From assembly GCA_041937175.2 (NCBI GenBank), contig CP166615.1:384001-448000 (forward strand): DNA of 64,000 nucleotides, given 5' to 3'. The first letter of the stretch is position 1, and each line of letters starts with the position of its first letter. The position numbers and the translations under genes are program-made. Shown here one piece after another: positions 54,684 to 56,008 of the stretch. Under the pieces are notes generated by a model, which did no database searches, was not told the DNA's origin, and worked only from the letters and a program-made list of their open reading frames with translations. The DNA is from Limnothrix sp. BL-A-16 (GTDB lineage Bacteria; Cyanobacteriota; Cyanobacteriia; CACIAM-69d).

Positions 54684-54691
54684 TTGTATGT

Positions 54692-54910
54692 GGAAGGCGG
54701 TGGAGCAGGAAGGTTAAGCTCAGGCATAATCGACCCTCTCCCATCCGGTAGAGACTCTGGACAGGCCCTGAAGCTCCGAAGCTTGAGGCTTAGATTGAAG
54801 AGCCGACCGGAACCCGCCTTCCCGGACACTGCCAGTAGACTGAACAGTATTCAGAGTGACCGCTTGAGCGCTGTCACCTCGGATCAAGCAAGGGTAGCAC
54901 TGGGTCAGTG
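54692..54910 (+). ncRNA. Predicted bridge RNA with target-binding and donor-binding loops
   Basis: Stems GGAAGGCGG/CCGCCTTCC, CCGGT/ACCGG, CACTG-CCAGT/ACTGG-CAGTG. Guides: LTG ACAGGCCCT 54761-54769, RTG GGCTTAG 54787-54793, LDG ACAGTATT 54844-54851, RDG CAAG 54885-54888. Confidence 0.85.
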
Positions 54911-54939
54911 ACCGTCCCTCTTTCTTGTCCACCCCAACC

Positions 54940-55953
54940 ATGACTAATCCAATCTATATTCCCCTGGGCATCGACATCAGCAAACACCACTTCGATGTTG
55001 CCCTCTGCAAAGCACCCTCGACCGCTCGCAGCAAAAGTGCCTTTCACACCAGCCAGTTTGCCAACAACGAAACCGGATTTCACGAATTACTCGCTTGGCT
55101 CGAACAACACCAAGTCCACCACATTCATGCTTGCCTAGAAGCAACTAACATTTATGGTCATGAGTTGGCAGCCTTCCTGTATCAACGGGAGCAGCGGGTC
55201 AGCATTGTGAATCCTTCCCAAGTCAAGGGCTATGGGCAAAGTCGCCTGAAGCGCACCAAGAGTGACCAGGCGGATGCGGGAGTGATTGCCCAATTCTGTC
55301 GTGACCTGACTCCTCCCCTGTGGGAACCGTTACCGGAAGCCCTAGAGCAATTGCAGCAGCTTTCCCGCCGCGTGGAAGCGCTGATCTCGATGCGGACTGA
55401 GGAGAAAAATCGGTTGGACTCTTGCCGTAATCCCCACTTACAGACTGATCTACAAGCCCATATTGCCTATCTGTCGGAGCGGATTGATGACCTAAAAAAG
55501 CTTATGCGCGAGCATATTCGCGCCCATGAAGCCCTTGCTCATCAAAGCCAATTGCTCTGCTCGATTGTCGGCATTGCGGAAACCACCGCCACCAACTTGT
55601 TGGCGGAGATTGGTGTGATTCAGCGCTTTGCTTCCGCTAGACAATTTGCGGCTTTTGCAGGTCTCACTCCCCGAGAATTTATCTCGGGGACATCTGTTCG
55701 CGGCAAGACTCGATTGTGCAAAATTGGTAATGGTCGGCTGCGAAAAGCCTTCTATTTTCCAGCCTTGTCAGCCTGTCGCTATTGTCCTGAGATTGCAGCA
55801 TTTCGCAACCGATTAGTCGCGGCGGGCAAAACACCCATGCAAGCCATTGGCGCTGTGATGCATAAGCTGGCCAGGATTGTTTTTGGGGTGCTGCGGCATG
55901 ACAGACCGTTTGACCCCAGCCAACTGGCAGTCACCACAGAGCCTTGCTCTTAG
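54940..55953 (+). CDS. IS110 family DEDD transposase/recombinase
   Basis: GIDISK (D), CLEAT (E), KSDQAD (D,D), [18 protein letters not shown] (catalytic Ser), GNGRLR, A..HKLAR. Confidence 0.97.
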
Positions 55954-55980
55954 GCTTTACATTTTGTCACTTTCAGACCC

Positions 55981-56008
55981 TTGCGCCTCCTCGGCGAACA
56001 CAGTATCT
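55981..56008 (+). promoter_or_regulatory. Right-end half of the circle-junction promoter
   Basis: TTGCGC-N17-TATCT plus the T at 54685 gives -10 TATCTT only when the ends join. Confidence 0.7.

Follow-up and report, generated by a model that had tools for sequence, protein, structure and literature searches.

The window analyzed here is a 64,000-nucleotide stretch of contig CP166615.1 of Limnothrix sp. BL-A-16 (positions 384,001 to 448,000). Near its end, one recombinase gene lies between a long left noncoding end (LE) and a right end (RE) of 55 bp, and both junctions with the surrounding DNA carry the same CT core. As read from the sequence, positions 54685 to 56008 very probably constitute an autonomous insertion sequence of the IS621 type within the IS110 group, with a complete and readable bridge RNA. 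All strings quoted in a preliminary description of this locus are present at the positions given there (direct reading). The element and its junctions comprise the following features.

54676 to 54684, plus strand: left target half (LT) ACAGGCC with core CT; the same in 4/4 copies, with GACG upstream
54685 to 56008, plus strand: whole IS110-group element, 1324 bp; delimited by four identical copies and empty-site contigs
54685 to 54939, plus strand: LE, 255 bp; starts with the right donor half TGTAT
54940 to 55953, plus strand: recombinase gene, 337 amino acids plus stop; open reading frame (ORF), Pfam, NCBIfam, and IS621 alignment
55938 to 55958, plus strand: terminator-like hairpin at the ORF end; consensus scan only
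56000 to 56008, plus strand: left donor half ACAGTAT with core CT, the final bases of the element; direct reading
56009 to 56013, plus strand: right target half AAGTC; direct reading and copy comparison

Recombinase, boundaries, and copies

The label "IS621-like," given to the recombinase in the preliminary description, was borne out by every protein comparison. Both domains are present: PF01548 (DEDD_Tnp_IS110) matched with an E value of 4.1e-29 (101.8 bits versus a cutoff of 29) and PF02371 (Transposase_20) with 2.5e-24, the latter marking the C-terminal Tnp domain with its conserved catalytic serine. The NCBIfam model NF033542 ("IS110 family RNA-guided transposase") scored 244 bits versus a cutoff of 140. 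The best matches among solved structures were the transposases of IS621 (8wt6_A; E = 6.5e-68) and ISCro4 (9t56_A; E = 9e-66). By BLASTP, 132/321 residues (41%) are identical to the IS621 ORF of an annotated Escherichia coli locus (L005), and D12, E67, D109, D112, and S249-G250 stand opposite IS621 D11, E60, D102, D105, and S241-G242. In IS621, D11, E60, D102, D105, and the S241 region are reported to be essential (Hiraizumi et al., PMC11208158). A blastn search ("distant" setting) with the element against E. coli genomes gave no match; IS621 was found by tblastn on plasmids.

By direct reading, the left junction ACAGGCCCT|TGTAT (ACAGGCC-CT|TGTAT) occupies 54676-54689 and the right junction ACAGTATCT|AAGTC (ACAGTAT-CT|AAGTC) occupies 56000-56013. 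Because the CT core is present at both, 54683-56006 would be equally valid coordinates for the element. The element lacks terminal inverted repeats and generates no target duplication, and the CT core is shared at its junctions, as in the IS110 group.

The genome (4.56 Mb in two contigs) contains four matches to the 1324-bp stretch, each 100% identical over the full length, and a PF01548 search of the genome retrieved no recombinases beyond these four copies. On the left, the four flanks all finish with GA(C/T)GACAGGCC-CT; on the right, they start with AGGCC, AGGAT, AAGCC, and AAGTC, placing every insertion at GAYGACAGGCC-CT|...|A[AG]G. The preliminary description had named copies with different ends or unrelated flanks as the result that would speak against it; 4/4 copies proved to have the same ends and related flanks.

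An empty form of the site was found among Logan contigs of four public runs placed on 54500-56200. In run X1, of lake-water DNA, and again in run X13, of a single organism, one contig passes straight from 54682 to 56007 and leaves out exactly 1324 bases; the two letters that fit on either side are the CT core. These bridging contigs thus fix the boundaries exactly, exclude a target duplication beyond the shared CT, and show the insertion to be polymorphic among natural populations. Both runs hold the element too, as a separate contig ending 17 to 25 bases into the shared flank. The depth of the element contig was ∼3 to 4 times that of the flank contig, a ratio we do not use as a copy number. 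Most of the public datasets that carry the element are lake-water metagenomes.

The zero divergence among the four copies points to recent transposition. The preliminary description considered the element intact. The ORF is open and has all catalytic residues; that the element is intact and active we infer from the identical copies and the polymorphic empty site.

Predicted bridge RNA and its guides

A two-loop RNA is predicted within the LE, with the components listed below.

54742 to 54912, plus strand: predicted bridge RNA core (target-binding loop [TBL] plus donor-binding loop [DBL]); sole match of covariance model R1 in the 64-kb window, 144.7 bits
54744 to 54811, plus strand: predicted TBL domain; RNAalifold, covariation, and IS621 alignment
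54760 to 54769, plus strand: left target guide (LTG) GACAGGCCCU (GACAGGCC-CU; DNA GACAGGCCCT); 10/11 to the left flank and aligned with the IS621 LTG
54787 to 54793, plus strand: right target guide (RTG) GGCUUAG (GAGGCUUAG in IS621-aligned form); complements the repeat consensus CT-AAGCC
54794 to 54795, plus strand: TBL handshake guide AU; complements donor positions 6-7 (AT)
54827 to 54910, plus strand: predicted DBL domain; basal helices 54827-54836 with 54899-54903 and 54906-54910
54844 to 54851, plus strand: left donor guide (LDG) ACAGUAUU (DNA ACAGTATT); left donor ACAGTAT plus core C as a U:G wobble
54883 to 54892, plus strand: split right donor guide (RDG), AU (54883-54884) and GCAAG (54888-54892); complements CT-TGTAT, with three bulged bases between
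54893 to 54894, plus strand: DBL handshake guide GG; both bases complement target positions 6-7 (CC)

RNAalifold applied to six cyanobacterial LEs predicted a pair of stem-loops that each open into a large internal loop; of their 31 pairs, 12 have compensatory changes. In the TBL, the basal helices pair 54744-54751 with 54804-54811 and 54755-54758 with 54799-54802, and an apical hairpin pairs 54771-54774 with 54781-54784. The covariance model R1 was built from this six-LE alignment and used to search the window plus 29 loci (149 kb, both strands). It matched 15 further LEs that had been left out of the model. Among the sequences outside the model was the IS621 LE (L005:435-585), retrieved at full model length with 37.5 bits (E = 1.4e-7); the alignment to an IS621 bridge RNA model that the preliminary description proposed was thereby run in reverse, with a positive outcome. 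Covariation was measured on a model-fitted alignment of 22 rows (20 distinct), in which 89.4% of cells are standard pairs and 29/31 pairs show changes on both sides. As controls, 0/500 shuffles reached any of five measures, and sliding the partner by 1 to 3 columns gave 30 to 43% pairing. In a separate 15-sequence MAFFT alignment of LEs, the conserved blocks follow one another as ...LTG...AAGCTTG...AGAT...GACTGGACAGTAT...GCAAGG.TAG; AGAT, which includes the AU handshake guide, is invariant in all 15.

In a single-sequence fold, GGAAGGCGG (54692-54700) pairs with CCGCCTTCC (54815-54823), enclosing a 5' hairpin and the whole TBL in a three-way junction. Similar complementary stretches were seen by eye in the elements at L031, L033, L006, and L009.

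The preliminary description had recognized the LTG/RTG/LDG/RDG layout in two internal loops, and the corresponding columns do align with the IS621 guides:

LTG: window GACAGGCCCU; IS621 UAUCGGGCCU
RTG: window GAGGCUUAG; IS621 GUUGCGUAG
LDG: window ACAGUAUU; IS621 ACAGUAUC
RDG: window AU-CAA-GCAAG; IS621 AU-UU-GCAAG

The published IS621 guides are LTG A50-U58, RTG G77-G80, LDG A123-C130 (8 nt), and RDG A157-U158/C162-G165 with two flipped U residues (PMC11208158).

Since the LTG reads like the top strand across the left target and core, it would pair with the bottom strand. ACAGGCCCT recurs in the LE at 54761-54769, and adding G54760 extends the identity to the flank to 10/10. The RTG is perfectly Watson-Crick complementary to CT-AAGCC; at this copy (CT-AAGTC) it forms six Watson-Crick pairs and one G:T pair, exactly as first described. 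Contiguous RTG pairs counted from the core number 7, 8, 5, and 7 at the four copies. In the donor loop, direct reading of the LE places GATCAAGCAAGGG at 54882-54894. CAAG occurs twice in the LE (54885-54888 and 54889-54892), and the IS621 alignment identifies the second as the homologous guide. The original assignment of CAAG as the RDG was therefore correct but incomplete, as it is only part of the split AU...GCAAG that covers the whole of TGTAT. The DBL handshake is GG where relatives have GA or GU. Strand exchange by IS621 improved when its second handshake base was made to pair with the target (PMC11208158), and by analogy GG may have this effect here.

We compared these matches with chance expectation. 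Among 200,000 mononucleotide shuffles of the 255-nt LE, the 9-mer ACAGGCCCT appeared in 305 and ACAGTAT in 2001. Of the 11 positions of the left target, 10 match in the element's own loop and ≤8 in the loops of 14 other elements. Taken together, the shuffle counts and the cross-element comparison indicate that the guide matches exceed chance. The comparison was extended to 15 distinct elements by scoring each 11-mer left flank against the TBL region of every element. Own-flank matches averaged 8.8/11 and reached ≥9 in 11/15 elements; L031 and L009 scored 8, and L033 and L010 scored 7, which is the chance level. The 210 cross pairs averaged 6.9/11, with 11 reaching ≥9, nine of these between sisters sharing a guide. 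The left flank of L009 (G334:C8) matches the LTG of the Kovacikia element (L006) at 9/11 positions versus 8/11 for its own LTG; the guide may have drifted once the element was in place, or the insertion may have been off target.

Relatives were drawn from Kovacikia and Leptolyngbya plasmids; from nine cyanobacterial genomes among the 13/401 phylum-sample genomes with a match; and from Geitlerinema, Oscillatoriales, and Spirulina metagenome-assembled genomes (MAGs) plus five Abditibacterium copies. The donor ends ACAGTAT-CT and TGTAT are kept in all 21 elements for which both ends were found. In the E. coli L005 locus, TGTAT... breaks into a repetitive extragenic palindrome (REP) after ...CTTATCAGGC-CT, and the last bases of the element, ...ACAGTAT-CT, are followed by ACG; the REP query sequence in the Methods of Durrant et al. 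agrees with this locus (PMC11208160). Supplementary Table 2 of Durrant et al. (2024) lists the wild-type IS621 donor as ACAGTATCTTGTAT and the target as ATCGGGCCTAC. The donor of the window element, ACAGTAT-CT-TGTAT, is thus identical to the published IS621 donor over 14 bp; the preliminary description had stated this equality, and both the annotated locus and the table entry agree with it. The proposal of a new target specificity was likewise upheld: the target differs, ACAGGCC-CT-AAG (to the repeat consensus, GACAGGCC-CT-AAGCC) here versus ATCGGGC-CT-AC in IS621. Within the searched supplementary text of Durrant et al., ACAGGCCCT has a single occurrence, in an unrelated alignment row. "Natively reprogrammed," the wording of the preliminary description, describes the normal state of the family, since each relative examined has its own guide.

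In the Oscillatoriales MAG (L032:904-990), the first ∼31 LE bases are repeated just upstream, followed by the cognate target AACGCACC-CT and then the full element. This arrangement may represent an insertion beside a solo left-end fragment or an assembly artifact.

The dispersed-repeat target and a candidate junction promoter

Judged by its insertion sites, the target of the element lies where a dispersed repeat ends; for IS621, the repeat is REP. ACAGGCCCT occurs 163 times in the genome versus about 45 occurrences expected from base composition. These include 80 instances of GA(C/T)GACAGGCCCT, 49 of GACAGGCCCTA[AG]G, and 30 of the perfect 15-mer GACAGGCCCTAAGCC. The right half, AAGCCCCTTG, has 928 genomic occurrences (both strands counted), mostly as one arm of a perfect 20-bp palindrome, CAAGGGGCTT|AAGCCCCTTG. 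The target of the element is a variant junction, GACGACAGGCCCT|AAGCCCCTTG, with 21 exact genomic copies. The palindrome itself is highly iterated and distinct from HIP1; examples in the window lie at 54531-54553 (inverted target motif) and 54598-54612. HIP1 (GCGATCGC) occurs 10,504 times in the 4.56 Mb, and the genome has eight phycobilisome-family matches; together, these identify the host as a cyanobacterium.

The left flanks of the four copies come from at least three repeat subfamilies and share only ∼13 bases beside the core. This bears on the alternative that the protein of this IS110 transposon chooses the site by recognizing the dispersed repeat or a structure in it, with the guide-like strings of the LE playing a minor role or none. 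We consider that alternative very improbable: the strings are homologous in position to guides that experiments on IS621 have proven, and relatives with other targets have correspondingly different LTGs at the same position. It would nevertheless account for the restriction of all four insertions to one repeat family and for a conserved flank (GAYG and the upstream body) that exceeds the guide match. It also gains from the fact that the 30 perfect GACAGGCCCTAAGCC sites are unoccupied and that the right half is perfect in only 1/4 insertions, the other three having a wobble or mismatch. The empty perfect sites and the three imperfect right halves indicate that outer RTG pairing is either not strictly required or not sufficient. 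For ISPpu10, a target stem-loop has been reported as a second layer of specificity (10.64898/2026.03.19.712850); the four left flanks here, by inspection only, show no stem-loop conserved among them.

One further locus was considered as a footprint or second element and rejected. At C1:1639695 (minus strand), the repeat end GACGACAGGCCCT is followed by TGTATTGTAT, with no similarity to the element thereafter. The letters after the repeat end (TGTATTGTATTTC...) match the first 5 LE bases and then give way to AT-rich, unrelated DNA. The same sequence recurs as loose ends in runs X1 and X13, and the partial match is probably due to chance but may be a footprint.

Joining the RE to the LE in silico, as in an excised circle, creates a sigma-70-like promoter motif that includes one further feature of the element.

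55981 to 55986, plus strand: TTGCGC, candidate -35 box in the RE; 17-nt spacer to TATCT|T across the joined ends

The candidate -10 box consists of TATCT (56004-56008) plus the first T of the LE and exists only in the circle. TTGCGC-N17-TATCT|T is found in the window element, L031, and L032. In L033, L006, and L009, the layout is unchanged and the -35 boxes are other TTG-type sequences; the L010 motif is off by one base (-35 box at -29, 18-nt spacer). In IS621, L007, L012 to L014, L016, and Abditibacterium, the -35 box is seven bases closer to the right tip and the -10 box lies inside the LE. A junction-only promoter can be written for 16/16 elements examined, as a motif match only. The principle of a junction promoter has been published (PMC11208160), and the motifs appear to match it in two different registers. 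Modeled on this arrangement, the bridge RNA probably starts near 54692-54694, from the junction promoter.

In the integrated state, the RE and first target base form TTGCGC-N17-TATCTA (55981-56009), which points outward 105 bp upstream of the ORF at 56114. This sequence falls below the promoter-scan criteria; as a candidate promoter, it could activate the downstream gene.

Proposed mechanism, alternatives, and known systems

By homology with IS621, we infer that the element is transcribed, forms circles, and encodes a recombinase that binds its RNA and catalyzes strand exchange. Excision as a circle would join the RE to the LE and assemble TTGCGC-N17-TATCT|T across the CT core. This junction promoter would transcribe a bridge RNA of ∼220 nt from the LE, followed by the recombinase gene, and the DEDD/Ser recombinase would bind the RNA. 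The DBL (ACAGUAUU, AU...GCAAG) would hold the circle junction ACAGTAT-CT-TGTAT, while the TBL (GACAGGCCCU, GGCUUAG) would hold the target in the genome, GACAGGCC-CT-AAGCC, where the dispersed repeat ends. Strand exchange at the CT core would then yield insertion without duplication.

Besides the empty perfect sites and imperfect right halves, several results count against this guide-directed mechanism. An Rfam scan of 54400-56300 (E ≤ 10) gave no bridge RNA family; its sole match, a nematode small RNA (sRNA) model inside the ORF (E = 8.5), is at chance level and was discarded. The single-sequence LE fold is no more stable than shuffles (z = -0.95, an uninformative value), and RNAalifold predicted 0 pairs on the 15-sequence MAFFT alignment because the stems are out of register. 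The predicted structure thus arises only from the closer set of LEs and the model-fitted alignment, which leans toward the model. The LDG has a U:G wobble at core C followed by a mismatch at core T. Contigs from RNA libraries (X14 and X15) cover 54664-55129, 54681-54892, and most of the ORF, and they carry no information on strand or ends; those covering the LE include 4 to 21 flank bases, and DNA carryover is possible.

That the element is instead a recently amplified relic, now inactive or nonautonomous (for example, through loss of the RNA or a donor-guide wobble that blocks recombination), is extremely improbable: it would fit the LDG unlike that of IS621 at the core position, the absence of promoter-like sites in the integrated state (0 sigma-70-like sites by scan criteria in linear 54500-56200), and the absence of a circle junction from genome and contigs, but the ORF is open with all catalytic residues, the four copies show zero differences, samples exist that have the element yet lack it at this site, the LDG U is kept in L031 and L032 at 63 to 64% protein identity, and contigs are unable to show rare circles. 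The searches for such circles were as follows. The 14-mer donor junction, which would mark a circle or tandem, is absent from the genome. Contigs placed on the locus, which cannot show rare circles, contain no "go back" joint. A 22-letter circle-junction motif had 0 matches in metagenome contigs; because assemblies drop rare forms, this does not contradict circles. To look for further insertion sites, a 19-letter right-end string was also searched in these contigs; it gave two matches, rejected as chance because the sequence upstream is not that of the element.

Among the known systems closest to the element described here is IS621 itself (E. coli, IS110 group, PDB entry 8WT6). Alongside the two protein domains, catalytic residues, and 41% identity, both have a long LE, a short RE, a CT core, insertion without duplication, and an identical 14-bp donor. 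In both, the bridge RNA (predicted for the window element) lies in the LE, with the TBL preceding the DBL and with the LTG, RTG, LDG, split RDG, and AU handshake aligned. Both insert into a dispersed repeat (REP in the case of IS621; PMC11208160), and the candidate promoter of the window element, like the promoter of IS621, would be completed only at the circle junction. Apart from its target, the window element differs in an RTG that pairs over 7 nt versus 4, an LDG ending in U (wobble) versus C, an RDG bulge of 3 nt versus 2, and a DBL handshake of GG, both bases complementing the target, versus GU. Its candidate -35 box is 28 nt from the right tip versus 21, which puts the -10 box across the junction; that of IS621 is inside the LE. 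Its LE is 255 bp versus 191 bp, and its host is a cyanobacterium.

ISPpu9 and ISPpu10 of Pseudomonas putida, compared by description only, are also multicopy IS110-family elements, all located in one repetitive extragenic sequence, and ISPpu10 is reported to need a target stem-loop. The IS1111 group (seekRNA) shares the recombinase family and RNA guidance; however, its guide RNA lies in a long RE and its members have subterminal inverted repeats of 7 to 17 bp (PMC11208160). We rejected membership of that group for the window element, given its RE of 55 bp and the RNA model match in the LE.

The mechanism, loop layout, conserved donor, repeat targeting, and junction promoter have already been published, and the element is a clear example of this known mechanism. 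Of the IS110-group elements in ISfinder, 85.7% have a predicted bridge RNA, and the tree table of Durrant et al. already places a cyanobacterial protein in the IS621/ISCro4 cluster (PMC11208160). Within the collection of papers searched, none on IS110 bridge RNAs of cyanobacteria was found. The value of the locus lies in its unusual legibility, with four guides, handshakes, a junction promoter motif, cognate sites, and an empty allele all readable in a natural element that appears to have been recently active in a freshwater cyanobacterium. It extends the habit of targeting dispersed repeats beyond proteobacterial REP and offers a candidate orthogonal recombinase/RNA pair that shares the IS621 donor.

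It is conceivable, although we think it unlikely, that the element is a natural "enhanced" bridge system that reads a contiguous 15-bp target through its 10-nt LTG and 7-nt RTG with a fully complementary GG handshake. In IS621, a complementary handshake and an extended RTG had to be engineered for efficiency (PMC11208158). If this were so, the recombinase could be more efficient, orthogonal to IS621 in target yet compatible in donor (the same donor at 41% identity), and could serve as a native editing tool for cyanobacteria.

The cyanobacterial relatives, in the Geitlerinema (L031), Oscillatoriales (L032), and Spirulina (L033) MAGs and on the Kovacikia minuta plasmid (L006), have 57 to 64% protein identity to the window element. 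They share its donor ends, promoter register, and RNA architecture (131 to 172 bits with R1, in whose construction these sequences were used). In contrast, LTG and target are particular to each of them (ACGCACC-CT, CCCAAC-CT, and others), and most have an RTG ending in CGUAG, which reads CT-ACG, whereas the window element reads CT-AAG. The LEs of the related elements L012, L013, and L014 are enlarged to about 356 to 491 nt. Their surplus sequence consists of short GATCG-rich repeat arrays upstream of the bridge RNA core, and the TBL and DBL cores are intact.

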